In this document: piece by piece, positions 13,727-42,214 of the stretch | Position numbering within the stretch: position 1 is the stretch's first letter | Layout of the letters: each line of letters opens with the position of its first letter | DNA from: Psammoneis japonica | Lineage: Eukaryota | NCBI GenBank assembly: GCA_008632985.1 | Contig: QPGO01000013.1 | Coordinates: 1 to 64,000 of the forward strand | Reading direction: 5' to 3' | Length of the DNA: 64,000 bases | Notes under the pieces: generated by a model | What the model was told of the DNA's origin: nothing | Databases searched by the model: none | What the model saw: only the letters and a program-made list of their open reading frames with translations | Program-made: the position numbers and the translations under genes

Positions 13727-15902
13727 AATAAGCACTGATGCAAAGAAATCTATGTTGCAGGTAAACCTAGAATGCCGCGTTGCTGAACAACATTTCCAGA
13801 AGGATTACAGGAACCCTACGTTGCACGGGCTGGGTAAAGTAGCTTTGTAGAATGGTCCTTTTTGCAGCGTGAGATACTGATGAAGGCTGAAACGTTACTG
13901 TAGGTAGTGGCTGGATCCTTTCTAGAGTATGAAGACTCTCCAAGGACGCACTTTTTCTAATCGTGTGTCTCCTTCATGGTACATCCAAAGTGGCAGTGAG
14001 ACTGGGTGTGTCGAAGGTAGAATTGCGTCACTGCAAGCGTGTGCTGGATTTGACGTTGGCAATGGAGCCGGTGCCGTCTGCCGACGATGCGACTGAAGGT
14101 TAAGGATCTGGCACTGGTGGTGGACTTGCCATTGTTGACATCTGAGTGTGCATTGTAGAGGGAGATTTTAGCACTGTCAGTCACATTGGACGTCATTCAG
14201 ACACAGCTGCAACTGGTGTAGGATTGAACAAGTCAAGTTTCTAGTTTGTTTCGTCACAGCCCCCTCTGAAGGCGGTAAAAGCATAACCACCTACGTCTCT
14301 AGTAGAAACTGAAGTGTCACAAAAGATTGTTCTCCCCTGAACAGAAAGTGTCCACTGCCGATGCCGTGCAAGCGCCCGAAAGCACTGCTTCGCAACCGTG
14401 TCCCAGCAGAAGTTGCTCCACCCCTCTTCGAGTGTGTCTTCCGATGAGATGTAATTGCATCTCTGTTCTCCCAGAATGACTTTGTCCAATGCTGCAGGCC
14501 CACTTGGGTTATCGTCACCTCATTTCACGCCCCCAATGAGCGGCCAAAAAGCGGCTCATTGCCCAATTCTTCACCCTGGTCTGCCTCGTCGTTGTTAGAA
14601 TCTCAGCCATGATCTTCGACAATGTTGTGAAAATGCCCAAGGGGAACCTGACAGCCAACTTGCAACAACCATTTCAAATGGCTTTCATGAAAGGGAGCAT
14701 CACCATCTGGCAAGGCACAAAGGAGATCCTCCATCTTGATGTTTTAGCTGGATCACAACACTTGTCGCGAATGATCTTCATTTGCTCAAAGGCATTGTGT
14801 GCTGAAAAGCAAACCTTGTTGGGTCGATTGCAAAAGCGCAACAAGAGGTGCAACAGACTGTCACCCACGACTGCAAGCATTCGACTCCACCAGGGTGGTG
14901 CTTGAGAACAGGGCAGCATCCAGCCTCTTGCATGTCAGGAGAACTGAAGAAACGGGAAGGAGGAGTGCAGAAGCGGAACGTCCAAAAACCACGGAGGCAC
15001 GTGCTGGGCTTGAGTTGGACACTGTTCAGCTGTGAGTGAGAAAGGTGCAGACACCAAAATTCTCCTTGTCTGCTTTGTCCCAAGTCCTGCATGGGTCTCT
15101 CTGAGCTTCACACTTGACTGGATCCAAAACATGAGGCCTTCTGGGGGTGCACCGCCTCGTCTCCGGGGGGAATTTGTGCCGTGACAACCTCCGCCATCAC
15201 GATCATGTTAAATGAGCACTTTGTCATCCATCTCTCATGGTGTTTTTTTAGCACACATGAACGCAAAAGACTGATGATGAGAATTGTGAATGGAAAACCA
15301 CAAAAAAGTTTGAAAACATGCTCCCTTTGATGGCTGGCCTTTGGCATGTGGCATGGGGGTTGTGATGAGGCCAAGAGGATCTTTTCTTAAGAGATTTCAA
15401 ATGCACTGCTTTGCAACATTGTTTTGCTGGAAACGAACACTTGCAGAGAGATGACCGCTTGGGGAGACCCTGGTTTTGAGTGATGTTAAAGTGACACATG
15501 CACTGGAAGCCTTGGGGTTGGAGACAAAGAGTGGCCACTTTGGCAAGCAGAGTGTGCAATGCTGCTGTGCATTGATTTTTCCAAGAAGCTCTTTTTTTCC
15601 AAAATGGCTGAGCAGCAGTCCCAGGATTCATCAAAAAGCATGACACTGTTTGGGTGTGGTTTGACAATTTTGGTGAAGCAAGCTGGAAGCTCATGATCAT
15701 TGGCATCATGGGAAGAGAACTCATTGGCATGGTTGTCAACAAGCCCAACATCTCCTTCAGAACACTGTCTTTGAGTTGCAGTTGGCATGGTTTGAACGAG
15801 TCTCAATCTTGATGCTGAAGCAGCTGCCAATGTCCCCTGCTTTGTCTGAGGTGCCGGTGCTTCCACTCAAATCTTTTTTTAATGTGCTCATCAAAACATC
15901 AG

Positions 15903-16178
15903 TGACAGGATTTGAACAGGATTTAGGTGCGCGCGAAACATCGCGCGCTGTTTAGTTTGCCGCGCACAGTTTTGTGTGCTTTAGTTCCGCGCGTTCGCGC
16001 GCGATGCAGTTTGCTTTCGAGCCACAAGGCTCACAAGAATAACAACAGTAGCCCGATCACACCGACTTGCACGTCTTTTGGCTCCTGTGACGGTCTCTGA
16101 GCGGAGACTCATCTGCCATTTAGACAGCAGTGAGGAGTCATTGTTTGAATTCTTGCCACTTGCCTTCAACTTCTGTCA
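15903..16178 (+). repeat. 5' LTR of Copia copy A
   Basis: Aligns without gaps to 22732-23007 and has 6-bp terminal inverted repeats. Confidence 0.95.
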
Positions 16179-17112
16179 GATTGACAGTCTTGCTCATTGT
16201 CAACCCATTGAGCAACCGCCATCGTCGTCGTTGATTTGCCGACGACGCTGTTTCAATTCTGCGTGGACCTCCGTGCATGTTCTACATACATCGGCAAGTC
16301 TGCGCGCGTTCAACACCAGGCATCGGCAGGAATTTAACGTCACCGTCAAGTCTCCTTGCCGCTGGACATCTGGATTGATTGCACTGCCTTTGATCGCTGA
16401 AGACACACATCAACGGTCACATCCCAAGTCCATCCTTGATCCTCATCCCTTGATGTGCCCATTCAACGGTTGACGGTCAAGAACCCCACACATTCAAGGA
16501 TCTCCGTCGCTGAAGACACACACACACACATCTTCACGGCCAAGGACTTGAACCCACTCTTTGGACTGCGGCTTTGCTGCCACTCTACAAGCACGCCGAG
16601 TCCATTGTGCCTGATCTACCCCAGACTGCTGGTGCTCCACAGTTCTGCCAGGTCCACGAGGACAACTGTGAGAGCAAGCAGCCGTGATTGCAGCCTGCGT
16701 TGGGGCGAGGGTGTTTTCCCGCGTTTGTTCGTTCGTCCACAGCGCCTGACGCCTGCGTCAACTGGCCAGCCTGATCGGGAAATCCAACCGACATAAAATG
16801 AGAACGGTTCGGGGGTCTTGTCCACCTCCAGTCAGCTTGCCCGCAGGGGTTTGCAACCCGCTGCTCCGCTCGCAAGCAACCCAAAGCGCCGCTGGCTGCG
16901 GGTTCGGACGTGCCGGCACAACTCTACGGACCGGATGGGAAGTTTAGCACCTGACAACGAACGGGACAGCACAGCCCGGCGACTTCTGATTTTAAGGCAG
17001 TTCAAGATTTCAAGTCAAGTCCATTTCAAGTCAAGTCTGTTCTCACCCAAGTTTCAAGTCTGCCTTCGCTTCCCAACAAGAATTGCTTGTCCTGACAACA
17101 CTTTTGTCTGCC

Positions 17113-20100
17113 ATGGTTCTCACTCGTCAGCAACAAACCGATGGTTTCGAGCACGTTGTTGGAACTGTGCTTGCCCAAGGTGCTGGGAGCCCTCTTCGTT
17201 TGGCTTTGACCCAAGACGGCACGGACTCGCATCAAGAACTGTTCACGTTCATGCCGTCCCAAATCGACTCGCTTGAGTGCGACAACGTCACTAACGTGAT
17301 CCCTTTGCCCCACGGTTGCAAGAACATGTTAGCAGCTCCAACCAGTCTGTGCATTGTCAAAGCACATGAAGGTCTTGACGTTGCCAATGACTCCTCGTTG
17401 TTCACGCATGACGAGTTCCTTGCCTGCTGCCTCAGCCCCGACTGCATGTCTTCTGTGTCTGTCGGCAGCTCACCCCTCGCACCTCCACATGTCACCAACC
17501 CGACCAAGGCACGTGACCCGGTGCGAGACTTCAAGCGAGGCATCAAGCGTGACCCCACCACTTTCACCGCTCTCAAATCCGACAAGCAGTGGCACACTTG
17601 GCACACCTCACTTGTGGCACAAGCTCGTGCCCAAGACGTTGAGTGCATTCTAGACTCGTCATACAAACCGACCAGCCCCGAAGACAAACCGCTCTTTGCT
17701 GAACAGCAAAAGCACATGTTCGCCGTCTTCGAACGCATTCTTCTCACCGACAAGGGCAAGGCTCTCATTCGCGAAAATGTGGGGTCTTCTGACACTCAGA
17801 CCATCTGCCGCGCCTTGTCTGAGCATGCGCTCACCTCCACCCGCGCATCTGTCGAGTCCTCCACCTTGCTCACGCACCTCACCACCGCACGGCTTGGTGA
17901 TGGCACTTGGAAAGGTCCGACCCACGGGTTCATCCTTCATTGGCAAGATCAGTTGCGCAAGTGCGAGGCACTCATCCCGGCCAGTGACCACTTCTCTGAA
18001 GGACAGAAGCACGTCATGCTCGAGAATGCCGCACACCCTGTCGAGGAACTCCGTGCTGTCAAGAACCAAGCTGATCAGCATCTTACGCAGAGTGGCAAGA
18101 GCCTCACATGCGATCAACACTGTGGCTTGCTTCTCTCCGCGGCAGCTCAATGCGACAGTGCGTTTCAACCCAAGACGACACCTCGAGCTCCCCGACGTGC
18201 CACATGCGCACACGACATCCACTCCGAGGAACCGTCCGACGATGTGTTCTGCGACATTGACAGCAACATTGACGTCCTTCAGGCCAATGCTGCCTGCACC
18301 CGTGGTCCCAGCCTCGCCGGTGACCAATGGAAACGTCTCCCTCCCGACCACCAATGGATTTGGGATTCGTTGCCCCATTCCTCCAAGGCGATCATCCTTG
18401 AGCATTCTCGTCCGCCTCCCCGCAACCCGCGAGCCAGCAACTGCCATGAGTCTGTTACAGCCAACCTTCACGTCCAACGCCTTGGGAGTGACGGTGATGT
18501 CAACTTGTCCAACACGACTCCTGCTGACTCTGGTGACCCCGCTCCAAATGTGGGTGCCACTTCGGATGATCCCATCCTGGCGCACCTCACCAAGCGCATG
18601 CCACTGCCACCTGGTGATCTGCAACGTCTGTTGTCTCCCAACCAAGCCCCCAACGCCAGTCGACCGGGGCCATCCGCCGCTCCCTCTACTCCGCCAGCTC
18701 CTGCCGGATGACATGGAACTTAACGGCCGCACTCACCGCCGCGTCAATGACCACAATGTCATTTGCTCTGCCTCTGCTCATCGCTCCACACGCACTGGTG
18801 CTCTAGTCGATCATGGGGCCAACGGCGGCATTGCTGGCGACGACGTTCGCGTCATTGCACGCACCTCTCGCCAAGTCGACGTTCAGGGCATTGACGACCA
18901 CCAATTGGTGGACATCCCCATTGTCACCGCTGGTGCCGTCATTGAGACCCAGCGTGGTCCCGTCATCGCCATCCTCCATCAGCACGCACACACGGGCAAG
19001 GGCAAGACCATTCATTCCTGCGGCCAGCTCGAATGGTGCAAACAGGATGTCAACGATCGCTCTGTCAAGGTGCCCAACGGCTTGCAATGCATTGCCACCC
19101 CTGATGGCTGTGTCATCCCCATTGACATCAAGGGTGGCCTGCCTCATGTTGCCATGCAACCTTGCACTGACGCTGAATGGGACACCCTGCCCCATGTCAT
19201 CCTCACCGGTGATGACACATGGGATCCTTCCGTCCTCGATCACTCTGTCACTGACGACGACCAGTGGTGCGACGCGATCTCTGACCTGCAGGACGATCCC
19301 ACTGCCAACCCATTTGACGAATGCGGCAACTGCCGTCATCGTGTCATTGTCAACGAGACCATCATGTCCGCTTCCTTGTCTGCCGATCACGCGTCAGCCC
19401 TCGATGATCACCTCATTCCAAACGACGACGTGTTCTACGAGAGTGTCATCTACACGCGATTGACCCCAAGGACGACAACGTCCCGCCCCCGGAGCGCACT
19501 GTGCAACCCAAGGACCCCCCCTTTGAGTCTCTTCGGCCTTGCTTTGGCTTCCCACCCACTGACACGGTCCGTCGCACTTTTGACTGCACCGCGCAGTGCG
19601 CCCGCATGCCCGCCGGTGCACACCTTGGGAAGGCCTGCAAATCACCCAACCCCGCCCTTAATGTGCACCGCCGCAATGAGCCTGTCGCCACTGACACAGT
19701 TTGTGCCGACACCCCGGCCATCGACTCTGGTTGCACCAGCGCCCAACTGTTTGTTGGCACCGAGTCTACCGTCACTGACGTCTGTGGCACCAAGACGGAC
19801 AAGGAGTTTGTCAACACACTCGAGGATCAGATCCATGAGCGTGGTGCCCCATCCAAACTCATCAGCGACCGTGCTCAAGTTGAGATCAGCAACAAGGTGC
19901 TCGGGATCCTACGAGCCCTCTTCATCTCCAGCTGGCAAAGTGAGCCTCACCAGCAACACCAAAACTTTGCCGAGCGTCGACACCAGACCGTGAAGCGCAT
20001 GGCGAACACTGTCATGGATCGTTTTGGTTCGCCCGCCCACACATGGCTGCTGGCGCTCATGCATGTGTGCTTCGTGCTCAACCACACAGCATCCCCACGT

Positions 20101-22784
20101 CTCCACTGGCGCACGCCCCTCGAGACTCTCACTGGCTCCACCCCGGACATCAGCCCATTGCTTCGCTTTCACTGGTGGGAACCCGTGTGCTTCCACCTCG
20201 ATGACTCCGATTGGCCGTCCGAATCCCGTGAGTTGCGTGGACGCTTTGTTGGCATTGCTGAGCATGTCGGCCACCAGATGACCTTCAAGATTCTCTCTGA
20301 CGAGACTCAGAAGATCCTCTGCCGGTCCAACGTACGCTCCGCTGCCACCGATCCTGCCGTTCGAAACCTGCGTCTTGATCCTCCTGATGGGGAGCCACCT
20401 GAACCCATCATCAAATCTCGCCATGACGACAACCCCGTCGATTCTCCTGATGGGGAGATCAGGACACCCAAGATGCCAGTTTTCGATCCGCAAGACATCA
20501 TCGGACGCACCTTCCTCATGCAGCCACAAGAGGACGGACAACGCCACAGAGCTCGCATCGTCAATGCCGTCGAAGACCACGAATGGAAAGTGAACGGCAA
20601 TCCCGAGCTCACTAAGTTCATCTGCTCTGTCAACAACGACGAATGCAAGGAAGTCCTTGCCTGCAACAACATCATGAATCACATTGAGCAAGAAGACGAA
20701 GACACTGCTGTTTGGAAATTTCGACGCATCGTGTCACACGAAGGACCTCTGAAGCCTCATGACCCAACCTGGAAAGGCTCAAGCTACAACATCATGCTTG
20801 AATGGGAAAGTGGGGAGATCACGTCCAAGCCTCTTGCCATCATCGCCAAGGACGACCCCGTCACCTGCGCCATCCATGCACGAGAGAACGGACTTCTCGA
20901 CACTGATGGCTGGAAGCGGTTCCGCACCATCGCGAGGCGCCAAAAGAAGCTATTTCGCATGGCCAACCAAGCCAAGCTTCGCTCCTTCCACACTGCACCT
21001 CGCTGCAAGTGCGGATGCGAAGTTCCCGGAACTGCAAACACGCCATGTCACTAGATGAACGCAACGGCAACCGCAAATGGGGAGACGCAACTAACCTCGA
21101 GATGGACCAACTCGAGGAATACGAAGTCTTCCATGACAGCGGGCCCTTCGAGTCTTCCACTCCTCCTGCGGGACACAAGAAGATCCAAGTGCACCCAGTG
21201 TGCGACGTGAAACACGACGGTCGCCACAAGGCACGACTCGTAGCCGATGGGCACCTCACGGACGCACCTGTCGACAGTGTCCACTCCGGAGCAGTCTCCC
21301 TCCGTGGCCTTCGGCTGATGATTTTCCTGGCCGAACTCAACGAGTTAGAGACATGGGCCACCGACATTGGCAATGCCTGCCTTGAAGCCACCACCAAGGA
21401 GAAGCTCTACATTGTAGCCAGACCCGAATTTGGCAAACTCGAAGGACACATCCTTGTCATCCACAAGGCCCTGTATGGACTGCGCAGCTCTGGTCTCCGC
21501 TGGCACGAGCGCTTCGCCGACTGCCTGCGAGCTGAAGGATTCTTCCCCTGCCGCGCCGAACCCGACATTTGGATGCGCAGGAACGGCGACCACTGTGAAC
21601 ACATTGCCATTCATGTGGATGACCTCGCCATTGCTGTGAAGGACCCTCAATCTTTTGTCGATGCTCTCACGGAAAAGTGCAAGTTCAAGCTCAAGGGTGC
21701 GGGACCCATTGAGTTCCATCTGGGTTGCGACTTTTCCCGGGATCCCGACGGAACCTTGTGCCTGTCTCCGCGCAAGTACATCGAGCGCATGGTTGACAGC
21801 TGCGCCCGACTGTTTGGGGAGAAACCTGCCACCAACGCCCTGTCACCTCTGGAGAAGGGTGACCACCCCGAACTGGACACTTCCGAACTGCTGGGGCCCG
21901 ATGGCATTCACAAGTTCCAGTCTCTTGTTGGTTCACTCCAGTGGGCAGTGTCCCTTGGTCGAATTGACATCACCACGGCCGTCATGTCACTCTCTAGCTT
22001 CCGAGCTGCACCCCGTCAAGGCCACTTGGACCGTGCCAAACGCGTCTGTGGTTGCCTCTCCAAGATGCAACACGGCGCTCTCCGCGTTCGTACGGAAGAG
22101 CCCGACCATTCGGATCTCCCTGCTCCGGCCCATGAATGGATGCATTCCATGTGTGGCGAAGCAGAAGAGATGATCCCGAAGGATGCTCCACCGCCCCTTG
22201 GCAAGTTCGTCACTGCCACCCACTGCGTCGATGCAAACTTGCACCATTGCATGCTCACCGGACGCTCTGTCATGGGAATGCTCCATTTCCTCAACAAATT
22301 CCCGGCTGATTGGTTCTCCAAGAAGCAAGCCACCGTGGAGACTGCGACCTGCGGGTCTGAATTTGTTGCCGCAAGGACTTGTGTTGAGCAGATTATCGAC
22401 CTGCGCATCACCCTGCGCCACCTTGGCGTCCCGATCTGTAATGTCAGTTGCATGTTCGGTGACAACAAGTCAGTTGTAGACAGTGCCACCATCCCGCACT
22501 CCAAGTTGCACAAGCGACACACCGCACTGTCGTTCCACCGTGTGCGTGAGGCAATTGCCTCTGGTTGCCTTGAGCTCCACTTCATCGAAGGCTCCCGCAA
22601 CCCTGCTGACATTCTCAGCAAGCATTGGGGTTGCTCCCAAATCTGGGACCTTCTCCGCCCCCTCATGTTCTGGAACTTCATTCCATCCGAAGTCGAATCT
22701 GTTTCTGTGACTCCTCAAGCAAACTGGGGAGTGACAGGATTTGAGCAGGATCCAGGTGCGCGCGAAACATCGTGTGCTGTTTAG
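17113..22784 (+). pseudogene. gag-pol polyprotein of Copia copy A (frameshifted, Tyr-depleted)
   Basis: Gag RDFKRGIKRD; protease LVDHGANGG; integrase VATDT...ISDRAQVE...NFAERR; RT DVKHDGRHKARLVA, DIGNACLEA, KALYGLRSSG, HVDD; RNase H GDNKSV...NPADILSK. Frame breaks near 18700, 19400-19500 and 21030. Confidence 0.93.
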
Positions 22785-23007
22785 TTTGCCGCGCACAGTT
22801 TTGTGTGCTTTAGTTCCGCGCGTTCGCGCGCGATGCAGTTTGCTTTCGAGCCACAAGGCTCACAAGAATGATGACAGCAGCCCGATTGTGCCGACTTGCA
22901 CGTCTTTCGGCTCCTGCAACGGTCTCTGAGCGGAGACTCATCTGCCATTTAGACAGCAGCAAGGAGTTGTTGTTTGAATTCTTGCCATTTGCCTTCAATT
23001 TCTGTCA
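22732..23007 (+). repeat. 3' LTR of Copia copy A
   Basis: Direct repeat of 15903-16178, followed by the TSD ATCAG. Confidence 0.95.
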
Positions 23008-23514
23008 ATCAGAATTTGAGAGATCAAAACTTGGATGATCATCAGTGCAAACTGGAAACATTGTTGAGCCACTGCAAAATGCACATCCATCATGGCAGGT
23101 GAGCTGCTTGAGCCCAACGTTGATGAGAGCACTCCTTGAGAACACAAACTTGAGGTGGATCCAGCATCCTTGTCATCACACATGTTTTTTGACATCTCCA
23201 GGCAGCACTTGTGGTGGCCCAACATTGGGAAAGTCAACGCCCTTTGGCAGCTCCACAAAAACAGGCCTTGACATGTTGGCACATGGGTGTGCACACTCCA
23301 GCCAAGCAAAATCAACTTGCCTTGATCTTCACTTTTAAAAAAGATGGACAGAACAAGGAACAAGTGAGAGTGGCAGTCAACAAGAAAGCAAAAGCATGGG
23401 CTTTGTTGTGGTGGTCACCTTTCTTTGTCTTGTGTTTGCCCAAGCCAAGTTGGCTTTTTCCATTTGTGCACTTGGCTGCTGCAAGAATGCATTGACTGTG
23501 CTTGTTCACAAGGG

Positions 23515-23690
23515 CCCCATGCTGCACAGGCAAAAGAATGGTCTCACCCTTCTTGGGCACATCAGCACTTGCAACAACACACCAATGTTTCCCATCAGCA
23601 TGGTCTCACACTTTTTTGGCCACAGCTTTCAGAGAGCTTCATGCATGCACAGCATGTCTGGGTCATTCTTGGATGCCTTCAGGTCACTCA
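23515..23690. repeat. Dispersed repeat segment; second copy at about 40757-40920
   Basis: CCATGCTGCACAGGCAAAA..TGGTCTCACCCTTCTTGGGCACATCAGCA...CAGCTTTCAGAGAGCTTCATGCATGCAC is present at both loci in the same orientation. Confidence 0.8.
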
Positions 23691-25316
23691 CAGTTGCTGT
23701 CAGCAAGAGATTCTTGTGCATGCAGTGCATGGTCATTAGACTGTGCAGGCTTGTGTGTGTGTGATGTGCAAGTGGAATGCACGTGGGGTTGCTGCTGAGA
23801 GGATCGACATGCAGTGGATTTTTTGCCAGCGCACAATCTACGCGGTCCACAGGGAAGATAAATTTACATTTGTTTCTGATGCTTGCACATGTCATTGAGT
23901 TTGCTTGTGCTTTAAAAAATCTTGCAGAACACCCCAAAAAAAGTGTGGAATCTGCACAAAAAAATTTCCATTTGACGGTCCAAACATGTGTGTCGTGAAG
24001 CACTTCTCACACTTGCGTTGCCAAAAGAGAATCACTGTCGGTGACACAGAACCCTGTCCTTCATGCGCAATGACAGCGCACGACAATGCACAACACCACC
24101 ATGGCACAGCAAACAATGCGAGCACCATTCAGGGATCTACGAGCTGCTGTTTGAAGATGAGATTGAGGTGTGCACACAACAAGTGCACAGCAGCGCAATG
24201 TTGGACAGATGACAGTCGTGCATTTCTTGCAATTTGCATGACAAATTGCCGTTGACGCCGATGACAACAACATTTTTCTCAAGCTCAGACAGGATGACTT
24301 TGCAATGGGCACTTGTCAAAATGATTGATTGCACCATTTAAAACATGTGTGTGCAAAGAAAGTCCCCCTGACAAAGTCTCAATCATTCAACAAATGCTGC
24401 ATGACAGAGACTTGTCAGAAAACAGAGCTCTGCATTGGTGTGATGTTTGCTTTTGAACGGAGGTTGCTCTCGAGGACTTTCATGACTGAACACATTCTCA
24501 AACTTAACAAACTAAATGTCTGCAATGACAAAAGACTCTGGGACACGTCACTGATGTCGCTGTCATTGTGACAACACACCACCGTCATGTCACTGATTTT
24601 TAGCGATGATGTGTGTAGCGTGCACGAAGTTTCCAGCACAAAAAAATTCAGAAAGTCCAATCATCTTGCCATCCATCAGCTTGTTGTGTGAATGCCTTAA
24701 ACCGATTGAACAACATTGATGCACTTCATTCGTGGGTCAAGTTGGGATTCTTCTCATTGCTTGTTGTCATGTCATTTTACAATGTTTTGACCCATGCCGT
24801 GTTTTCTGCTTTGTTGCTTCTGCTTGTGCGCCACCAACCACACACCACCCAACAGCTTTTCCTCTGCAGGGTGTGGCCAGTTGCACAGTCTTCACATCAA
24901 ACCCAGCCAAACTCTGGAGCTGTCATCATTCAGCATCAACACAGTTTGCAAAACTGTTCTCGACACTGTGTGGGTGAGGCTTGTCAAGATTGCAGTCAAA
25001 TGAAAGATGAAGCAGCAAGTGGCAGAGCTGGAGCATGAAGCAGCCACATGTGAGTGCATGGTGGGATGGGGCATGGACAGTGAGGTGATCCCTGCTTTTT
25101 TGGGACCAGCAATCACATTGGTGTGCCTCTCCTTTCCAGTGCCTCACTGAGCAACACCTTGTCATCGGGGGGCCATCGATTTGCATCGCGCCATCTTCCA
25201 TGATGGCTGCCTTGTGTTGCATCGTGACCAAGGAAGCCTCAACGATCGGGGCACTCTCCAGAAACTGATGGAAATGTGCCGGCATGCCATGTGGCAGAAG
25301 GCCCATTGTGGGTGAT

Positions 25317-28225
25317 TGTGGCAGATTTAAGAGTCATTCATGAAAAAATGAGACTGCAAAAGTGTAAAATGCTGAAGTGAAGTTCTGGAGTGGCGGCTCC
25401 ATGGAATGTTCTTTGTCTTGACTTTCTCCAGAGACTTTTTTCCTGCTCATGCACACAGAACATTCCTGAGGTTGTCCTTGAATGCAGAGCATCTTGAGAC
25501 ATCTGAGGAGTTGTCTTGAGACTTCCAAGGAGGTCTCAAATGATGTCCGAAGGCATCATGGGGGAGAAGTCGAGAGCTCTGAGGCTCGGTCTGCAGGTGA
25601 AGTTCTGGAGTGGCAGTTCCATGGAATGTTCTTTGTCTTGTCTTTTTCCAGAGACTTTTTCCTGCTCATGCACAGAACGTTCCTGAGGTTGTCCTCAAAT
25701 GCAGAGCATCTTGAGACATCTGAGGAGTTGTCTTGAGACTTCCAAGGAGGTCTTGAATGATGTCCGAAGGCACGGGAGAAGTCGAGAGCTCTGATTTGCT
25801 CTTCATTTTCTTGACCATTTTCTTGTGAGATTTGGATTGGTTGAAAGGGAACTTGAGGTTTGGTCGAGAAATGTCTTCTTGATTTACTTGGGCAGTGATG
25901 CACGTTTGCTGTTGCTTTCTGCACGTGTCCGGTTGTTTGCTCAGGAGGAAGACATTGAGCAATTGTTCATGTGGCACGCAGTTGTCTCTTGATGCATGTT
26001 CACGTAGATGTGGATTGGTTTTGTCCACAGTTCTCCATTGTTCTTTATGACATCACGAGGTGTCTGGTCATGAGCACGATGTGACACGTGCCTCCTCCAA
26101 TGAATCGCATCAGGGAGAGAAAGGAACGAGATGCCGTGCATTTGCTGTCTCAAGGCAATTTCCTTTTTGGATGATGACAGTGCCATTGGACTTCATTTCA
26201 TGTGTCTTGCATGAGCCAAGTCAGTGCAAGGCAAGTTTGGATTGACGAGGGTTGTTGTTTTGGAGAGAAACAAGGTCTCCTGCTTTGAAGTCATGGTCGA
26301 GTCACCGAGAGTTTTCACGCACATCATCTGCTTGCACTTGTTGTCGGCAGCAAGCACAAATGGTCTGCCAATGGACGTTGCATTGTGAGGGAAGGATCAT
26401 GTCACATCCAAAAGCAAGTTGACTGGCAGAGGCTTGCATGATGGTGTGTGCCATCGAGTTCATTGCCCAAGTTGCTGGGGCTGTTGTTGCATTCCACAGA
26501 TTCGGTTGATTAAATGCATCAGGATCATCAACTTGTTGGGCTCACATGCAGCTCCATAAAACATTGTGGGTTCATTCAAGCAGTGAGTTCACTTGTGGGT
26601 TTCACACTGCTGCAGCTTTAGATTTAATCCCATGAGAAACCAGTGGTTCTTGAAATTCAATGCCTGTGAATTCTGTGCCGTTGTTGTGCATGCAACAGAC
26701 CGGGCATGGAAATTTGCATGACCATGCTTTGTTGAATGCTCTGGCAGTTTCCAGAGCTGAAACTGTGGAGATCTGCTCCATGCCAAAACAATGAGCAGCC
26801 AGATCTGCCATTGCAAGGGCAGTCAATGTCAAACTTCGTTGGTTGACGCTGGTGCCTGCAGTGAAGGCAATTGGTCCGGAGGTGTCGACTGCCACCTGCA
26901 ACCAGGGGCTGATCTCAAGGGCTTGCACGTCCTTGGGAGGTGTTTTTCCACACACTCTGCAGTTCTCTTTGCACCTTGGACAGGTTTGGCATTGGTCTGT
27001 CTTGGTCTTGACGTCTTGGGTCAAACCTTGCCAGCAGCGGCACTGTCTGAGGGTCTTTTCCATCCGTTGGACACCTGGATGGCGCAAATTGACATGACGC
27101 CAAGTCAACAGAGGTGCTTGCAGAGCTGCAGGGATGACAATCTTGTCCTTAAAAAGGACTAGAAGCAGGTGTCCATCCTGCACCATGCAACTGCAATCAG
27201 ACAATTCTTTCTAACTCGGGTCGGTTTGAGTGAGTTGCAATGCTTTTTTGCACATGGCATCATCTTGCTGTGCTTCAATGATCACATCAAGTGAAATGGG
27301 TGAGCGAGTGTTGTTGTCACATTCAAAGGCAAAACACTCTTCCAGTGTTGGATCTGCAGCTGGCATCTCTGGGTCACTGGTTGTGTCGTGGCTTGGGATG
27401 AGCAATCCGCAAGCACATTTTTTGCTCCCGGCAAGCAAAGAATCCTGGGACCAAATTCCTCAACAATCAGCCACCAACGATGTGCGCAATCTGACTTGAA
27501 ATTTGCAAAGGTCAGATTCTTGTGATCCACACAAATCATGATCCCATGACCCAACAGGACATCATGATGCTCTCGTAGGATCATGACGATCAACAGCAAT
27601 TCTTGTTTGACAACTGGATGTCTTTTTTGCATGTTGGAGAGTTTGATGGAGTGAAATGCCATCGGGAGCTTGTCTTGAATGACAGCACTGCCCAGCTGGC
27701 ATTCTGAAGCATTGGTGCAGATGCAGATCATCTTGTTGAAATCAGGGTGGGCAAGAAGCGTTGCAGTGGAGATCCGTCTCTTGATTTCTTGAAACGCTTG
27801 CTCGTGCTTGGGTTTCCATTCAAACTTGACTGCTTTCGAGGTCACACTCAAAAGAGGTGCCAACAGATGGGCACAAAGTCACCACATCTTGCGACAGCAG
27901 TTTGTCATTCCAACAAAACCTCTGAGTTCTTTCTTTGTTTTGGGTGAAACCAAATTCATGATCACATTGACTTTTTTTGGCTGTGGTTTGATTCCGTTTC
28001 CAGCAATGACAAATCCTAGACACTCCGTTTCGAGAGCACAAAAGAACGTTTTTCACAAATTTGCTCTAAAGCCTGCATCATTCAAAAGCACAAACACTTC
28101 ATGCAATTGGGCGAGGTGATCATCAAAGGATCCCTTGCCAACAATCAACAGATCATCAACAAAAATAAGGACAAACTCCAAGTGTCCAAGCAAGTCAGTC
28201 ATGACTTTTGGAACAAGGGTGAAAT
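25317..28225 (-). mobile_element. Ty3/Gypsy LTR retrotransposon remnant (RT C-term, RNase H, integrase, probable 3' LTR about 25317-26086)
   Basis: RT IFVDDLL...ETECLG; RH LAHPDFNK, NASECQLG, QELL, DHKNL; integrase HxxLxHPG...CQTC, PWLQVAVD, NGTEF; end ETANARHLVPF* near 26110. A purine tract (GGAGGAGG) precedes TGTCACA at 26086. LTR limits are tentative and the element is 5'-truncated. Confidence 0.85.
25377..25794. repeat. Tandem duplication, period about 220 bp, inside the putative Gypsy LTR
   Basis: GTGAAGTTCTGGAGTGGC...GAGAAGTCGAGAGCTCTGA occurs at 25377-25582 and 25597-25794. Confidence 0.9.
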
Positions 28226-30219: not shown

Positions 30220-30249
30220 CGTCCACTGATGGTATATTAGTAACCCGCA

Positions 30250-31850
30250 CCTGTGCCATCCCATCACTCCTGCACCTTCTAGAGTCCGACGTCTGCTTCA
30301 ACTTCAACCCAGACAACCCACAACCCCTCACTTCCTGGACTTCACCTTTCCAACAAGAGGTCCAATGCCACTGCAACGCCTGCCTGCAACATCTTACAAC
30401 AGCGCAACCACTGCCACTGCCATCACACGCCGCGCTCCTCGCCCACCTCCCCGCATCCTCCGGCGGCGTCGGCTGCCGATCCACATCCACCTCCGCCATG
30501 CCCTTTCTCGTCTCTTAACTCGCTCGCTCCTTTTGATGTACAACACATGGACCAACCACAGGCCATGACAACCCCCTCAAGCTCCCACCTTTCTGCGCTT
30601 GCTCCCTCCGCACCTGGGCCACCTCCCGCCGCCCCTTGTGCCTGTGTCAGGTCTTTCAGCACTGTGGCAAAGCTGCCACACACACACTTGACCCTCCCCC
30701 ACCTTCCCCAAAAGCCTTTGTCAAAATGCACCCACTGTGCAACCTTTCCCACACCCTCCATCATGCACACTTTGAACGCATGCTCAAAGACCTCCGCCTG
30801 CATGGACCATCGCACGTCACCCATGCGCTCCCGTCCCTTCTCTCTCCACTCACAAGTCTCACACTCCACTCCCTTGCTCACTCGCCACCTCGACAATGCC
30901 TGAACCCTGAACAGTTCCATCTGATGCTACAACACAAATTGCAGCTCCCCATCTCACCCCACCAACTCGAATCTACCTCTTGCCCCTCTTGCTCCGGCAC
31001 CATTGACCCATGCGGTGACCATGCCTTCTGTTGTCGATCCCTCGGACACAAAACAACCATGTCCAACGCCATCCGCGATGGCCTCTACGCTGCTTTCCAA
31101 ACACTTGCCCCACTCTCCAGCATCTGTGCCAACTCTTCCACCGTGCACCACGAACCAACCAACCCAATGCCTCATTCACCCCTCAAATGCCCTGCTGATG
31201 CAGGCATCCAACTTGCCCCAGCCGCCTCTGCTGCCTCCCCTCTCGGCCGCCGACACCTCGCCATTGACATTGCTGTCCCCAAACCTCCCCCATGCAAGCA
31301 CAAAACGGAAGTTCAATGGAACCCACGAGACCCAACACGAAGCAACCCTTACATCCGCCCTTGACAATGCCAGCATCTGCCTCATTCCCTTTGCCATTGA
31401 CCATCTGGGAGCCCCAGGCTACTTCGCCCACCGCCTTCTTTTTGGTGCCAACCAAGACCTCCCCATCCCTGCTCCACCTGCCCCACCTTGGAACACCGAA
31501 ACCTGTTTTCAACACCCAGCTGCCCATGCCACATGTGCCTGCGCCCAACAATCCCTGTCTGCTGTCCTCCCTGCCACCACTGCCACCTGGCAAACCATCT
31601 CTGCCAAATGCTTTGGCCCAACCCACCACTCCTCAACACCGTCACAATGGGGTCTACAAAGCCTGAGCCTTGCGATTGCCAAATCACTTGCTGACCAACT
31701 GACCCACTGCTCCACCAAACTACAATCGCAAACATCAAACCCCAACTCGAAATCCATCCCTTTTCCCACCTGCATGACTCAGTTCCGCCATTGCCCCACA
31801 TCTGTCCCTCCCCCATGCCACTGGGTGACGTTGCACATGAACTTCTCACG
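30250..31850 (+). mobile_element. 5'-truncated non-LTR retrotransposon with C-terminal Zn-knuckle and restriction-like endonuclease (CRE-clade-like)
   Basis: KLQLPI...CPSC...DPCGDHAFCC...KTTMSNAIRD...EP...PAD...LAIDIAV and LIPFAIDHLG match the CCHC + RLE layout of early-branching non-LTR elements. The + strand is C-rich and TA-depleted. Confidence 0.65.
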
Positions 31851-31906
31851 TGCGCGTGCTGCCAGGTGGTTTCCCCAACCAACAAACTGCCGCACCAGCG
31901 GCCTCA

Positions 31907-34128
31907 CCCCTGTGGTGCCGGCAGCGGGCGGGAGCTGTGTGTGTGTGTTCGTGGTTGTGCATTGAGTTTCAATGTCAATGTCCACATGCATGTGCACATT
32001 CCACAAGCAAAAATTCCCACTCCACAGCTCCCCCAAAACTCTGACCACCAAAAACCGGGGGTGTGGAAACGCGCTTTTTGGAAGACAGTGCACACACCAC
32101 AACATCACGCGTTTCGACAACTCGGCCATGACAACCTCCCGTTCTTTGTCCCCTGCACCACCTGACACACACCCGCCTGCCATTTCTGAGAAGGCGGTCT
32201 CTCCTGTGTTGGCCGGCACCGTCAAACCCGCTGTTGTAACCCAAACACAGCAGATTTGCAATCCTGAAGTTTGGGCCCATTTTTGTCAGATCCAAAATTG
32301 ACCATGGACGACATTGCAGCCATTTGTCATTGAGTGCTGCAATCAAGCACAATGCAACAACAAGGCAAAACAATCCCACTCATGCTCTGACAACTGCTGT
32401 GGATGCAAGCAGGCCTGGTGGTGGCAGAGTGAGGCGATTTTGCTTGGAACAACAAAGGTGTGGGATCAACGAGCACTGATGCACTGGTCAATGCTCCTTG
32501 CATGGGTGTGGGCATGGCAGAGGAGCATCTATGATGGGAGGCATGGTGATGACTTTTCTCAGGATGGTCATTCCCAAGCAGAACCTCCTCTGTCTGGAGG
32601 TGATTGAGACTCACCCAGAGCCCAGCGGAACCAATTGGAGCCAACAACAGGTGTGTCTAGATGAACTGCAGCAACATGTGAAGGAGGATGCAGCCAATTG
32701 AGTGCAGGCAGAGAAGGCGCCGGTGTGCAAAGCAGCAGCACAGCTGTCTACATGGCACTGGTTTTGAAGGCAGTCTGACAGTGACAAACACAGTGAGCAT
32801 TTGCCAAAAGCACGTTGCTGCCTGTCTCTGTTTTGGCAACTTACAAAAACAGCATGTTGCACATCATGCACAAAATTCAAACGGTGTCTTATGGAATTGC
32901 ACACAATGACCTGGTCCTGGAAAATGGAGCAGTGTCCAAGTCACATGCACGACTTGAAACCTTGCCAAGTTGCCTGCAAACAAACACCAAGTCGTGAACC
33001 TCTCCAACTTGAAACTAAAAAACTGCAAAAGCATGCCTGCCATCCAATTGTTGTCAGGTTTCTAATTTACAGAGAGCTGCACAATTTGTCTGTGCATTCT
33101 AAAGATTAGACCACACTCGAGAGCCAACCAAGAGGCACTGTTCACGTCCATTGATGTCACAGGCCAGCAAAGGGCAGGCAAAGAGCCCACTGAACACTTG
33201 TGCAACACAGGTGTTGATGCTTGCAATGTCTGAAAAATTGATCACCATGTCTTTGCCCAATGGGCTGCAAGTGCTTCAGAAGTTTCCTTGAACCGAAACC
33301 AGAAAACCATGAACAAACACAGAAAGCATGAGAGCCATGACACCAACACTCGTCCATCAGAAGGCCGTGGTTGCATGGGTTTCCTGGTCCGCTGTCATCC
33401 ATTGTGCTCCTTCCAAAGCAAAAACAACAACAGCATCAACAGCACCTGCAGCAGCAAGGGTGGGATCAACAGCGTCGGGCATGCCAGGGGGGTAAAACGC
33501 AGGTGCGGCATTGGAATTTGGGAGGTGGTGGGGCGAGAATGAAAGAAGTGTGAGTCATTGGCATTTCATTGTGGACGATGTTGGCAAAAGCCAATGACAG
33601 TGTCAACAGCACCTGCGGCAGCAAGGGCAGGCAGGAGCAACAGTGTCAGGCATGCCAGGGGCCTGAAATGCAGGCACGGCATTGGAATTCATGACAGCAT
33701 CTGTGGGAGGCAGTGGAGTGTGCAAACAACAGTGTGAGTTTGCAGCATCTTATTTTGCATGCATCACACCCATGAGAGCCGGAACAATGACATTGCCTGT
33801 TGCATCAGTGTTGTCATCAATGGCGTCAGTGGGATTGGAATGCTGGGAAGTTGATGGGGACAAACCAAGAGGCATCGTCATGGTCGAGTCGTCAAAACAT
33901 GTGTTTTTTGTGCAAAGAAAAGAGCTGCCAAAAGTGCGTTTTCACACCCCCGGTTTTTGGTGGTCAGAGTTTTAGGGGAGAATGTGGTTCAGGATTTTTC
34001 CTGTCACTGCAAGCATTTGTGTGCAAATGCATGAATGAATGTGAGGACATTTGTGTGAAAATGCAATGAGTGAGATGCAAATCTGCCATGCAACCATGAC
34101 ATCACCACATTCTCCCCCACCACAGGGG
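31907..34128. mobile_element. TIR DNA transposon derivative (about 2.2 kb), probably non-autonomous
   Basis: Terminal CCCCTGTGGTG / CACCACAGGGG. An inverted subterminal block of about 110 bp (AAAACTCTGACCACCAAAAACCGGGGGTGTG) at about 32020-32130 versus 33878-33988. No intact transposase recognised. Confidence 0.7.
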
Positions 34129-37100
34129 TGTCACAGATGAGGCATGAACCACCGATTTGTTCTCAACATTTTCGTCATCCATGACATTTCATTGTCCTGT
34201 TTTAAGTTCTCATCTGGATTTGATGAACAGCTGTGCTGTGTTGATGATGCACCTTCTCAAAAAAATGTTGTGGCGAACAACAATGAAAACTGGGGCCCTG
34301 CCACTGCACACCAATGCAGTGATCTGTTCGCGTGACTAAAGCAATCTTGTCAAGAAAGTCACACATGATTGACCAGTTTCATCAATGTTCCCATCTTTGT
34401 GTTCCATTTGTCATTGCTTGACCCCAATCACTCTGCAACAAACAATTGTTTGCCGTTCACGTAAACACTTTAATTCTTTTTTTACAATGATGACCCAAAC
34501 AGTTTTGATGACTGTGTCATTTCCAAACCAGATGTTGGGTGCAAAATGATTCAATTAAATTCTGTTTTTCTAACCATCATACATGTGAACAACATAAAAC
34601 GGCAACTGTGCCTCTTCACGAAGTGCCGGCACAATTTTTCGCATGGCAAACTGCTCTGAACTGCGCGGAATCAGCTGACACAGTCGAACAATGCGAGCCT
34701 GAAGCCATCTGCCCTCCCAAGCCAGGGCGCCCATGCATTTGTAAAGAGAGAGACCGGACACGCGAGACTTCCAGACTCCTCATTTTTCCAAGGGATCGCG
34801 CATCATTCATCAAAGCACCACACACCATGACAATCGGAGCGGCTCATTGGACCATTGACAATCCTTTCAACAATGCCAACATGCTGTCTGCCAGTCTTTG
34901 CCTTCACATGGAAACAGCTTGTGTTGCTTTTTCAAAGACAAGCAACCAATTGTAAGGTGAAAAAGGGATTTTGCATTGACACCACGATTCAAGACTCATT
35001 GTCGCTCTCTGTCACAATCAAGCTGCTCTGCACTTTTGTTTTGGAATCTCGCTCATTTTCTTTGACATGTTTGTCTTCATGGCTCATGTGGAGAAGCTCT
35101 TGAGCAACACATCACCCCTGCAGATGAACAATGGCTCACAGTTTCGTGTCGGTGTTGACACCATTTTTTCTTTCAACTCAATGTTCTTCCACACATTGGA
35201 GCGGGGCGCTGTGGTGTGTCCTGCACTCCCTTTTGGACCAAACCCAGCAACCTGCAGTTGACACTGTCACAAAGAATGACAATTGCAGTGTGCAACGGGA
35301 GGGCATTGATGTCCATGACGTTGCCAAGTGCTGGTTGGTGGCACTCCCTCGTTCGGGGACCAAAAACTGGGGTGAGTTGTAAATCTTGGTGGCGCGTGGA
35401 GACTCTGCAATTGGAGTGCGAGTGAACAGGCTCAAGCCTTGTGCAAATGACTCCCAAGGCTGTGCACCAAAGCAAGGCATGTTTGCATTTAAAGCAGCAT
35501 TGATGCATCATGCACACAGTGCTGGCATGAGGATTTTTACAATTTGACCATGTCATTCTCCGTCTCTGTCTTTTTTGTCCAGGTGGTGAGAGGGGCAATG
35601 CACGACATTTTGGTGCTTCTCTCAGGCTTCAAGCAATGGACAATGCTTTTGACGAGATGCTTGCATCATGCGTTTTGCATCATGTGCATCCTTGCCAGCG
35701 GGCGACCCCAAACTGGAGCATTGGCGTGAATCAGCACTTGTCAAAACCCATGACAATTTGGCGGACTGCAGCAGCGTGCATCATCACTCGTCGTTGCAAC
35801 AATCAATCAGCCATTGGGTTGATTGGCAATCTGCGGCAGACCCTCCATTTGAAGTTCCATTTCTTCCGTCTGCCATCCACCATCACATTTCGTGCCATCT
35901 GTTGTCCCCCCTCCATCGCGTTTCATGCCGTCTGTTTCCCCCCCCCCTCCATCACATTTTGTCTTTGAGGTGTCTGGGACATTTGTGCATGATTGTTCAC
36001 AAATGACAAGTTCATCCCGTCAGAAGCCCTGCACAGACTGCCGCAAATCGCAGCACAAATTTTAACAGTGTTTGTGCCATGCATGGCAACAGGCTTGCAC
36101 ATAGATTTGCATGCACCGGAGCTTGTGCATCCTGACAGACTGTCCTTGGGTGGACAAGACACCAGTGCTCGTGTTGGAGAATCAAAAGCCATGCAGTGCG
36201 GCAGAGCCGTCTGGGGGGCATCTTTGGAAGTGAGGCTGTCGAAGAAATTTGCGTGGAATTTGCACTGAGACAGTCTGTCAATCAGTGCAATTGGGGCATT
36301 TGGGAATGCTGGACAGATCCCATGTGTTTTCTTGTGCATGCAAATTGCACTGGAAATGCTCCCAAATGCACTGGCGATCAGACCGCATTTGTCAATCTCA
36401 CTTCCAAAGATGCCCCCCACGTTGGCGCAGCGGCAGATGCACTCTACATTGCCACCCAAATGGAAGCCCGCTTCGGACAAGGCATCTTTCTCCATCTCAA
36501 CTGTGAGCAAAGATCCCACTTCTTCCACGTACGATGAAGAAGTCACCAAATGCAAGCACGAGATGAAAGGGTTTTTGGAGGCAGACGAACCAGAGGAGGC
36601 CAAGCAGAAGAGAAGAAACGGCGCAACCGGGAGATCGTCTTGAATGAGAATCACATGAAACTTTGGGCAGCAGTCAAAGCCAGTGGCAAATGGGAGGATG
36701 ACCTCGAAAGCGTGCATGGCCTCTCTGACTTGGAAGCCTCTGTTTGTGTTGGCCTCGTGGCCAAGCATGACAAACACCACTCCTTCCCAGACTCGGATCC
36801 TGATGGCAAGAACCAAAAGCACCTTGATCTCGCCCGTGAGGGATGGTCTCTCATGCAAGAATTGAAATCTCTCATTGCAAAACATCCACAAGAAAATTGT
36901 GATCAGCACCGTCTCAATGGGGTTTGGCACCTGCACCTCGGTCCCACCTTGAAAGAGCTGGAGGGAAAAAACAAAAGCGAGCACGCGAAAGCGGACGTTG
37001 CGAAAGTCACTGTGGAAAGACAGGTTTGGGAAAATCACATTGAAAGTTTGTGCTAGAATGTCATTGAAAAAAAGCACTGGCAGCAGCTGTGGCACCAGTG

Positions 37101-37223
37101 CAGGTGCTCAACAGGAATCATTCGAAAATGTCGCGTGGGTCACAACCAATCTTTTGCATGAGGAAAAACACAAAATCGTGCAGAAATGTGCACAATGTCA
37201 CACGAGAGAGTGATTTGAGCCAA

Positions 37224-37336
37224 CAACTTTTCGGGAACTGAGCTGAAATGCCATCTGATTGACGGTGTTGGCCTTCACTGTGTGAATCAAAATGCCGTCA
37301 ATCAGATGGCATTTCAATTGATTTCCCGAGAAGTTG
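37224..37336. repeat. Long hairpin / palindrome (MITE-like or element terminus)
   Basis: Perfect 22-bp arms TGAAATGCCATCTGATTGACGG (37244-37265) / CCGTCAATCAGATGGCATTTCA (37295-37316), extended imperfectly to about 42 bp. Confidence 0.85.
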
Positions 37337-38179
37337 AAATTGCACACGGATGGATGGACAGACTGACAACAATTGTTTTTAGCACTCTTCCATCCTGCAC
37401 AATTTCCACGTGATGACTCTCAGGACCCGAATGATTCCCATTGGCATGACACCATTCTTGAGCATGGCTGGTTTCAGGCGTCGGAGGGGAAGCTGAAGGT
37501 TTCGAAAACTTCTGGAGTCAATGCAATGGTGCCAACCATCCTTGCCATCTACAAAACTCACCACATGAAGTTGCTTCACTGAAAGGAAGTGACCTGATCA
37601 GCAATGTGCATTTGGACTCAATCATTTGACGTGGATGTCAAGTTCATTGTCACAATCAAATGCTGTCACACCATGCTCAGCCAGAACTTCCTTGGCAGTC
37701 AGTCTCATTCGATCGACGAGTGCTTGTTCCTGTTGGCATTCGCGGTCGCCTCGCAATGTCAAGCTCAGAGCTGCAGTGCATGGTGAGACCAAAAAAAAGA
37801 AAGCCCATTCACATGCCATGTTGCAAAAATGAGGGCCGCAGAACCGTTGCAGTCACCGCCGCATGTTGCGCTCTTCATTGCGCGATTGCCATGGACCTGA
37901 AATGTGTCTTGGTCTCCAAACGCAGGCACTGAGAGGTCTCCAGCTGTGCCATGGCCGCTGCTGTGAGAATTTGACTGTTTCAGCCCCTTGTCCTTGCTGC
38001 AGGCACTGGGGGATCAAACATGACTGCTGCTGCCAACAATGATCAATCCCCAGAAAAAATCTTCTGCACTGAATGTCCAATCAAGACAAAGAGAGCCATC
38101 TGGCAACAGCATTGAAAACTCTGCTTGAAATTGGAACTGTTTGGATGACTTGGGCACTGCTGCAAAAACAAGAAGATTG

Positions 38180-40494: not shown

Positions 40495-41299
40495 TGTGTT
40501 GACCATGTGCCTGTTAAACAACTCTGTCAGCAGCGTGCAATTCTTGTGTTGTAAAGTGAAATTATCATCACATGAAGGATTGGTGTTGCTGCATCATTCA
40601 TCTGTGTCACAACAATCTGAACTTTAAAAAACACCAAGCTGACTGTTCAGCCACAAGACATGGATGCTTGAGTCTTAAGTTTTGTCTTTAAGATTGTTTC
40701 TTCTGGCAAGATTTTAGATGCTTTTGTAGTTACCTTTTTTTTCCACTGTGCTGCAATGGCCATGCTGCACAGGCAAAATGGTCTCACCCTTCTTGGGCAC
40801 ATCAGCATTTGCAACAATGCACCAATGTTTCCTGTCAGCATGGTCTCCCACTTTTTGGGCCACACAGCTTTCAGAGAGCTTCATGCATGCACTGCACATC
40901 TGGGTCATTGGATGCCTTCAAGTTGCACAATGTGGGTTCCTCAATTGGCTGCGGTTTGGCTGTGGTCACTGCCAGCAAGAGATGCATGTCCTGGGCAATT
41001 GCCTCATCATGAGGAGTGGTGGAGACATGCAAAACAGTTTTGGGTTGACATTGAAGTTGAGACTCAGTGGCCACAGGGGTCACATGCACTCTTCAACCCA
41101 AGTGAGTGGTGACTGTCAGACTTGACTGTTTTGCTGTTTGTGAGCCTCCTTCTCATTTAACAACATTGAGATCCATGTGTTGACTTTGCAATGGCTGCTT
41201 GCGGGTGTGTCTGCATCACTGGCATGATCCACATCAGCAGTTGATGACAAGGCTGATGCATCTGGGAGTGGAGCTTGATCTGCTGTGTGCTGTCATCTG

Positions 41300-41900: not shown

Positions 41901-42214
41901 TGCAAGCACAGGCTCCATGTGCAACTTTGGCACACAGAGAGTTTTTTCAGATGTGATGGACTTTTGCGAATGGGTGGACAAAGAATGCAAAATGTTTGTA
42001 GAGAGCAGGGTGTTTCAAAACAAAGTAATTTCTGTCATTGGCCATGTGCAGTGTTGGGAAGTGCAGTTGTCAGTGCAAGCATCAAATCAGCTGGCAACAA
42101 AAAATTGCTGTCTCAGGGATCATTGCAGATGCAGCCATGGAAGCAGGTTGCAGCAGCATGTGTGTTGATCCAGAGAGACAGCTTTGTTGCCTTGGCAGTC
42201 TCTGTGATTGTTCA

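Follow-up and report, generated by a model that had tools for sequence, protein, structure and literature searches.

Evidence for TpA-directed transition hypermutation of integrated LTR retrotransposons in a 64,000-nucleotide window of Psammoneis japonica

Repeat-induced point mutation (RIP) of ascomycete fungi converts CpA to TpA, with enrichment of TpA and a lowered GC content. Hyperediting by ADAR and editing by APOBEC3 act on RNA or on complementary DNA (cDNA) before integration, with one strand polarity and identical long terminal repeats (LTRs). A process closer to the one considered here has been described in Bigelowiella natans, where integrated giant-virus and virophage DNA gained 231 new mutations in mutation-accumulation lines; 230 of these were A>G or T>C changes, all of them at TpA (Mettrop et al., 2026, bioRxiv 10.64898/2026.01.13.699255). 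According to that preprint, the mutations arise de novo and episodically on chromosomal DNA, the TpA mutation rate in the integrated viral DNA is about 1000 times background, low-TpA coding sequences are enriched for reverse-transcriptase and DDE Pfam families, and adenine deamination is the proposed mechanism. The present analysis concerns a stretch of 64,000 nucleotides from Psammoneis japonica (assembly GCA_008632985.1, contig QPGO01000013.1, positions 1 to 64,000 of the forward strand), referred to as a whole as the window, and chiefly a Ty1/copia retrotransposon within it, element A (15903-23007). We consider it probable that TpA is hypermutated to CpA or TpG after integration in transposon-derived chromosomal DNA, and not in neighbouring host genes, with adenine deamination as the likeliest chemistry.

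The changes seen in this window are almost only A>G or T>C, restricted to TpA and confined to mobile DNA (Copia element A, a second Copia element B and a Ty3/gypsy fragment); this is a new case of the kind of hypermutation just described, here on LTR retrotransposons. The likeness to B. natans is close: only TpA>TpG and TpA>CpA occur, foreign or mobile DNA is hit while host genes are spared, and over the long term TpA becomes low and CpA+TpG high. The two cases differ in the form of the evidence and in the stage reached. For B. natans, the preprint reports real-time evidence from two viral insertions in which numerous TpA remain (observed/expected 0.45 in the giant-virus region), whereas here the process is read from LTR pairs, a target duplication and the Tyr codons of Copia and gypsy elements, it is near saturation (0.03-0.19), and a table of sequence contexts can be given. 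The terms LTR, retrotransposon, context and trinucleotide are absent from the preprint text, and the listings of full-text literature searches contained no other paper on TpA-directed A:T>G:C hypermutation of transposons, the remaining matches dealing with RIP or CpG. With RIP, the process shares a defence-like, dinucleotide-specific transition hypermutation of repeated or mobile chromosomal DNA and the resulting unreliability of divergence dating, but its direction and product are opposite, TpA being destroyed (0.03-0.19) and GC raised (0.55-0.57, against at most 0.53 in relatives). Fungal RIP was rejected as a candidate; instead of C>T at CpA with TpA enrichment, the Tyr codons show TA changed to CA or TG.

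The LTR pair of element A was located by a direct-repeat search combined with alignment, and the element is made up as follows.

15898..15902, plus strand: left target-site duplication (ATCAG), identical to 23008-23012
15903..16178, plus strand: 5' LTR, 276 nt, TG..CA; its variable TA-type sites read CA at 4, TG at 2 and TA at 3
16179..22731, plus strand: internal region, degenerate, coding over several frames; TpA observed/expected 0.13, GC 0.57
19468..22760, plus strand: similarity to 120 Copia-type homologues, from integrase to reverse transcriptase; source of the Tyr codons by which the changes are polarised
21165..21800, plus strand: RVT_2 domain (Ty1/copia reverse transcriptase; PF07727, E=8.6e-25), residues 87-298 of the frame starting at 20907
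22722..22731, plus strand: putative polypurine tract, a purine-rich run found by inspection directly 5' of the 3' LTR, with a presumed function
22732..23007, plus strand: 3' LTR, 276 nt, TG..CA; its variable TA-type sites read TG at 5 and CA at 4
23008..23012, plus strand: right target-site duplication (ATCAG), matching 15898-15902

The TG..CA LTR ends, the 5-bp target duplication and the RVT_2 domain are those of a Ty1/copia element, and in tblastn searches Copia-type proteins of about 1030 residues are collinear with 19468-22760. An integrase domain gave no Pfam match in the degenerate frames, which is attributed to the Tyr to Cys/His changes described below, since these weaken profile searches. 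Because identical copies of ATCAG flank it, element A is a single, non-recombinant Ty1/copia insertion, with LTRs that did not yet differ when it arrived.

Over 276 aligned columns, the two LTRs now differ at 22, with no gap columns, and all 22 differences are transitions. By dinucleotide class, there are 6 reciprocal CA/TG sites (accounting for 12 differences), 2 TA/CA sites, 1 TA/TG site, 3 CG/TG sites and 4 other transitions, and at all three TA-retaining sites it is the 5' LTR that keeps TA and the 3' LTR that reads CA or TG. The dinucleotides common to both LTRs comprise 19 CG, 3 TA, 19 CA and 19 TG. When 22 transitions were placed at random on the LTR, none of 20000 sets reached even four reciprocal CA/TG sites, compared with the six observed. 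An earlier note, made from the letters of this DNA, had held that the pair diverged mainly at TpA-type sites, without indels or transversions. Every string that it quoted is present in the alignment, its counts hold, and the balance it drew is the one found (six reciprocal and three TA-retaining sites against three CG/TG and four other); only a final G/A at the 3' end, which it may have counted, falls outside the LTR.

Indirect evidence places the changes after insertion, on chromosomal DNA. The two LTRs are copied from one template, and editing of the RNA is therefore unable to make them differ. The earlier proposal of a chromosomal, post-insertion origin is borne out by the intact target duplication of element A, by the presence of both CA and TG outcomes within each LTR, and by the host target site of element B, whose two copies differ as TA against TG: the sequence is ATTTA (45492-45496) on one side and ATTTG (52386-52390) on the other. 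These observations bear directly on the possibility that the changes predate integration and were inherited, their source being an ADAR-like enzyme that edits A to I in the RNA, or else deamination of the single-stranded cDNA during reverse transcription. Such a course of events would suit the preference of ADAR-type enzymes for a 5' U, as given in the Discussion of the B. natans preprint (bioRxiv 10.64898/2026.01.13.699255). It would also suit the agreement between elements A and B, which show the same outcome at 10 of the 13 Tyr columns mutated in both (hand count), whereas a proportion of about 0.56 is expected if they are independent; it is possible, although not required, that some A and B changes came from parents that were already mutated. 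However, cDNA editing predicts a single polarity per LTR, and CA and TG are found at 4 and 2 sites of the 5' LTR and at 4 and 5 sites of the 3' LTR. Both A>G and T>C are present on the sense strand, a host target duplication has been hit, and the single-copy flanks of element A (depth 56-71, against about 1e5 on the element) are TpA-depleted as well. Deaminase-type, context-dependent clustered transitions in retroelements are common to this locus and to ADAR or APOBEC3 editing, but differing LTRs, both polarities and damage to flanking host DNA set it apart, and a pre-integration origin is highly improbable.

The direction of change was read from the coding region of element A. The 120 homologues (55-68% identical) were aligned to the element by tblastn, and columns were taken as conserved where at least 80% agreement was found among at least 40 homologues. 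Only 4 of 20 conserved Tyr (TAY; Y, pyrimidine) columns keep Tyr in element A, the others reading Cys (TGY) at 10, His (CAY) at 5 and Phe at 1, and the catalytic-box tyrosine of the reverse transcriptase is among the residues changed to His. Every other residue class is retained at 80-100%, including Arg 29/30, His 17/17, Asn 10/10, Phe 16/17, Trp 13/13 and Cys 3/3; expressed as codons, retention is 10/10 for AAY, 17/17 for CAY, 25/28 for GAY, 16/17 for TTY and 16/16 for TGG and TGY together. Loss of Tyr (16/20) compared with loss of all other residues (23/376) is significant at p=1e-14 (Fisher test). With conserved residues giving the polarity, Tyr to Cys/His makes up 15 of the 39 departures in element A and 18 of the 50 in element B, where 1 of 21 conserved Tyr is kept (14 Cys, 4 His). 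The homologues themselves show nothing similar: their cells at the conserved Tyr columns hold 2126 Tyr and 28 Cys or His. When element A is compared with the best intact relative along the full alignment, 36 Tyr positions read as 4 Tyr, 18 Cys and 10 His. Cys or His replaces 78% of the Tyr in A and likewise in B, whereas among 78 metagenome relatives this share has a median of 3% and a maximum of 33%. Since residues other than Tyr are kept, neither a general A>G or T>C change nor a change of CA>CG or TG>CG has taken place. TA became TG or CA; CG was not the source, and CA and TG did not proceed to CG.

This direction matters for the LTR pair, because reciprocal CA/TG sites could in principle have been CpG at insertion, with 5-methylcytosine deaminated on opposite strands in the two LTRs. 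CpG decay is real in this DNA: three CG/TG sites separate the LTRs of element A, at the CpG of 16079 93% of the family depth reads C, CpG-type differences make up 7 of the 15 in element B, and CpG observed/expected falls to 0.09-0.3 in older transposon sequence. Its rate is nevertheless too low. With 19 LTR CpGs intact and 3 hit once, about 0.05 reciprocal double hits are predicted and 6 are observed (Poisson p=2e-11), and a homogeneous double-hit model with a CG ancestor (counts 19/3/6) gives G=20.3, a value reached by none of 3000 bootstraps. In the coding region of A, one of the 30 conserved Arg columns shows Cys, His, Gln or Trp, whereas Cys or His has taken the place of Tyr in 15 of 20, and a TpA observed/expected of 0.13 is beyond what CpG decay can produce. 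CpG decay and the TpA process share their end products, TpG and CpA, and co-occur, CpG observed/expected being as low as 0.09 in old copies; they differ in substrate and direction, and per LTR site in element A CpG decay is about ten times rarer (0.07 vs 0.72). The retention of Arg beside the loss of Tyr, together with the CpG hit-rate model, contradicts a CpG ancestor for the reciprocal sites of element A, and as a general account this explanation is extremely improbable, although some reciprocal sites in element B and in older repeats may well be CpG-derived.

The proposed sequence of events would accordingly begin with TA at the variable sites of the integrated DNA. Under a homogeneous TA-ancestor model, the LTR counts (3 intact, 3 single, 6 reciprocal) give a hit probability of 0.72, i.e. 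each LTR of element A would have lost, independently of the other, about 72% of its TA sites to a process changing TpA to CpA or TpG (A:T to G:C at TpA, on one strand or the other). Where the strand that was hit differed between the two LTRs, one would now read CA and the other TG. Transposon-derived DNA of this genome would be the target, close to saturation and with neighbouring host genes spared, while ordinary decay of CpG to TpG or CpA would run alongside more slowly, accounting for 3 of the 22 LTR differences in A and 7 of the 15 in B.

Besides element A, the window holds the following stretches of retrotransposon origin.

45497-52385, minus strand: Copia element B, about 78% identical to A; LTRs at 45497-45743 and 52139-52385, 247 nt
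26113..28199, minus strand: Ty3/gypsy fragment with RNase H and integrase zinc domain (Pfam matches)
38181-38903, plus strand: third Copia-type fragment, a weak RVT_2 match (E=4.9e-07) just below the gathering score; surrounding TpA 0.06

The LTRs of element B differ at 15 of 247 positions, all by transitions: 2 CA/TG, 2 CA/TA, 5 CG/TG, 2 CA/CG and 2 other. For the gypsy fragment, homologues were taken from an exhaustive search of representative proteins; none of the 5 conserved Tyr columns still reads Tyr (2 Cys, 2 His, 1 Phe), and 3 of 10 Arg columns retain Arg.

Composition across the window shows the same restriction to transposon sequence. TpA observed/expected is 0.13 in element A and 0.11 in element B, compared with 0.33-1.15 in the 78 metagenome relatives. 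In the internal region of A, TA has a frequency of 0.0063, whereas 69 relatives average 0.053. Added together, CG, TA, CA and TG remain as frequent as in relatives (0.251 vs 0.244), and GC is 0.55-0.57 in the elements versus at most 0.53 in the relatives. In a 2-kb profile, which is bimodal, the transposon sequence, about 40 kb in all, lies at TpA 0.03-0.19 and CA+TG 1.3-1.9 (both observed/expected), whereas host-gene windows have TpA 0.48-0.70 and CpG 0.81-1.0, with exceptions of TpA 0.26 at 1-2000 and 0.35 at 60001-62000. A 250-bp profile places the switch between the two TpA states within 250-500 bp. The depleted island and the host genes with normal TpA and CpG are listed here.

14001..28000, no strand: left part of the TpA-depleted transposon island; TpA 0.07-0.18, CA+TG 1.3-1.7
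30251..58500, no strand: right part of the TpA-depleted transposon island; TpA 0.03-0.19, CpG 0.09-0.72
1131-7282, plus strand: SPT6-like elongation factor, about seven exons with short introns
7518-11641, minus strand: P5-type cation ATPase
62725-63681, plus strand: histidinol dehydrogenase (PF00815, E=8e-106)

Protein-atlas matches for two of the host genes fell in different phyla, an SPT6-like fragment matching a diatom and the P5-type ATPase a zoopagomycote or haptophyte; on this evidence the host is placed no closer than a eukaryote, probably a protist. Between the two parts of the island lies a block (28001-30250) with normal TpA (8-15 per 250 bp) and normal CpG. Two long minus-strand frames in it (28503-29291 and 29227-30297) gave no Pfam match, and the block looks like a spared host gene. 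Its sparing indicates that the process is not simply regional.

The depletion has consequences for stop codons and reading frames. Counted on both strands, TAA and TAG stand at 2.9 and 4.4 per kb in the elements versus 22.7 and 23.7 in relatives, with TGA at 41 vs 43. Element A carries 22 frames of at least 100 aa on both strands, an abundance attributed to the loss of TAA and TAG. Such loss opens long spurious frames on both strands and would mislead gene callers.

Further copies of the family were read from contigs of the public sequencing run that holds the window. The summed word depth of about 1e5 on element A, compared with 56-71 on its flanks, indicates a very abundant family. Among the copies, 471 of 538 variant places are transitions, and among the 40 variant places listed out of 545, 21 have CA or TG in element A where other copies have TA, in 11 of these at more than 50% of the depth. 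At the LTR place 16043, 18% of the family depth reads T. A 27-position LTR pattern had no match in metagenome contigs and none in viral contigs.

Several results weigh against the reading of a TpA-specific process. The fit of the LTR counts to the TA-ancestor model is only marginal (p=0.044), which is attributed to the bases around TA: each of the three TA that both LTRs retain is T-TA-G. The preference for neighbouring bases is split, with single-hit sites between A and B at 9 vs 11 and Tyr codons at 23 vs 7. In the earlier note, a family consensus with CG and not TA at the reciprocal sites was taken as contrary to its reading. TA is favoured by the Tyr codons, the LTR model and the family copies, but the six reciprocal LTR sites are themselves not polarised by family copies, only two of the 40 listed places falling within the LTR. 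Element B, used as an outgroup, has TG or CA and not TA at five variable sites of A and is uninformative there. Positions 16308, 16595, 17295 and 17690 are CG in element A and CA or TG in 92-100% of the family depth. Finally, the sequencing technology of the window and of the supporting run is not on record, and the TpA base calls are without an independent check. As to the four CG positions, they are the opposite of CpG decay in A, and this excess of CG may reflect subfamily structure.

The base calls raise the possibility of an assembly artefact, in which a modified base at TpA in silenced DNA would be miscalled by a long-read basecaller as CA or TG. Modified thymines at TpA occur in some protists, the library type of the supporting run is likewise not on record, and the run may be the window's own assembly data and so not independent. 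On the other hand, independent miscalls at both positions should yield CG, and thus Arg, at some Tyr codons, yet not one of the 41 Tyr columns in elements A and B has it. Stable, copy-specific states of CA, TG or TA are found in thousands of k-mer contigs, two independent public records (P0079 and L037, see below) bear a partial signature, and the B. natans mutations, according to the preprint, were called from Illumina reads in a mutation-accumulation design. Taken against these data, an artefact is very unlikely.

The contexts in which TA has survived in the island are non-random when relatives serve as the baseline (chi-square p=1e-43). Survival relative to relatives is as follows.

Survival below that of relatives: ATAT 0.05x, ATAG 0.21x, ATAC 0.24x, GTAC 0.40x, ATAA 0.53x
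Survival above that of relatives: CTAC 1.4x, CTAG 1.5x, GTAA 1.5x, CTAA 2.9x, TTAA 3.4x

Mutability is thus highest for R-TA-Y (R, purine) and lowest for Y-TA-R. By hand calculation, the values of the mixed contexts follow from those of the four palindromic ones if a single neighbour acts additively. At Tyr codons, the edited strand with a 3' pyrimidine is favoured, with Cys:His at 24:9 (p=0.014) and 23 vs 7 in a paired test. Along element A, Cys and His outcomes form 9 runs where about 7.7 are expected (hand count), so that no clustering into strand-coordinated runs is seen.

Site specificity, direction, restriction to transposon sequence and timing are read from the data. The chemistry is a separate matter, because TpA is self-complementary and the attacked base is indistinguishable from sequence alone. 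An enzyme acting on silenced or foreign DNA could deaminate adenine, and the resulting hypoxanthine would pair like G; provided that the process itself is accepted, the analysis places this chemistry at an even chance. The main alternative is that the changes are real, chromosomal and TpA-specific but are a by-product of thymine modification in heterochromatin (5-hydroxymethyluracil or a base-J-like product of a TET/JBP enzyme) that mispairs with G, without adenine deamination. In a palindromic TpA, T>C on one strand is A>G on the other, and the folded context of surviving TA (ATAT 0.05x and GTAC 0.4x vs CTAG 1.5x and TTAA 3.4x) fits either base. Granted the process, thymine modification is possible but doubtful as its chemistry, and as a complete explanation of the data the by-product account is unlikely. 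Adenine deamination, the simplest chemistry and the one proposed for B. natans, is kept as the likeliest, and the context table may serve as a fingerprint for testing candidate enzymes.

A broader interpretation is put forward tentatively, at somewhat less than even confidence: the host would run a dedicated genome-defence system, in effect RIP in reverse, which would recognise any class of transposon or foreign chromatin to within a few hundred bases of its edges, erase 80-95% of its TpA, destroy Tyr codons and two of the three stop codons, and work at a context-dependent rate. If this is true and the host is not the chlorarachniophyte of the first description, such a system would be spread across distant protist lineages, as is hinted by two partly edited sequences from elsewhere. 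One is L037, a metagenome contig of 2.5 kb in which 9 of 27 Tyr positions are Cys or His and TpA observed/expected is 0.33; the other is P0079, a public Copia polyprotein relative with Cys or His at 8 of 20 Tyr columns. Both carry a partial signature, which therefore exists in other public data.

The results are of use in several respects. They provide independent evidence, drawn from sequence, for a process known so far from one 2026 preprint, and they carry it beyond integrated DNA viruses to two superfamilies of LTR retrotransposons, with an end state in which TpA is nearly erased. LTR pairs offer natural before-and-after controls for the TpA process. They also expose a problem of dating, as had been anticipated: the LTRs of element A diverge by 8.0% overall, by 2.8% without TA-type sites and by 1.9% when CpG sites are dropped as well, so that in such genomes an age taken from LTR divergence comes out about 3-4 fold too high if these two kinds of site are left in.

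Relatives outside this genome were also compared. The LTR-like pairs of four relatives (L002, L007, L011 and L023) that differ within the pair have 1, 0, 0 and 1 reciprocal sites among 16, 23, 20 and 31 differences, respectively, and retain many TA. Since their pairs hardly show the pattern, it belongs to this genome and not to the Copia lineage.

Within the window, reciprocal CA/TG sites are present in every repeat pair. Two repeats about 75% identical (42215-43680 and 55286-56308) flank element B at a spacing of about 13 kb, with 8 and 11 reciprocal CA/TG sites. This pair probably represents the LTRs of an older element that later received the insertion of B. A pair of repeats of about 170 bp with 89% identity (23517-23684 and 40760-40923), lying 17 kb apart, has 3 reciprocal CA/TG sites among 11 differences. 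Lastly, a tandem duplication of about 200-220 bp (25377-25582 and 25597-25794), 91% identical, shows 2 reciprocal CA/TG and 2 CA/CG sites.

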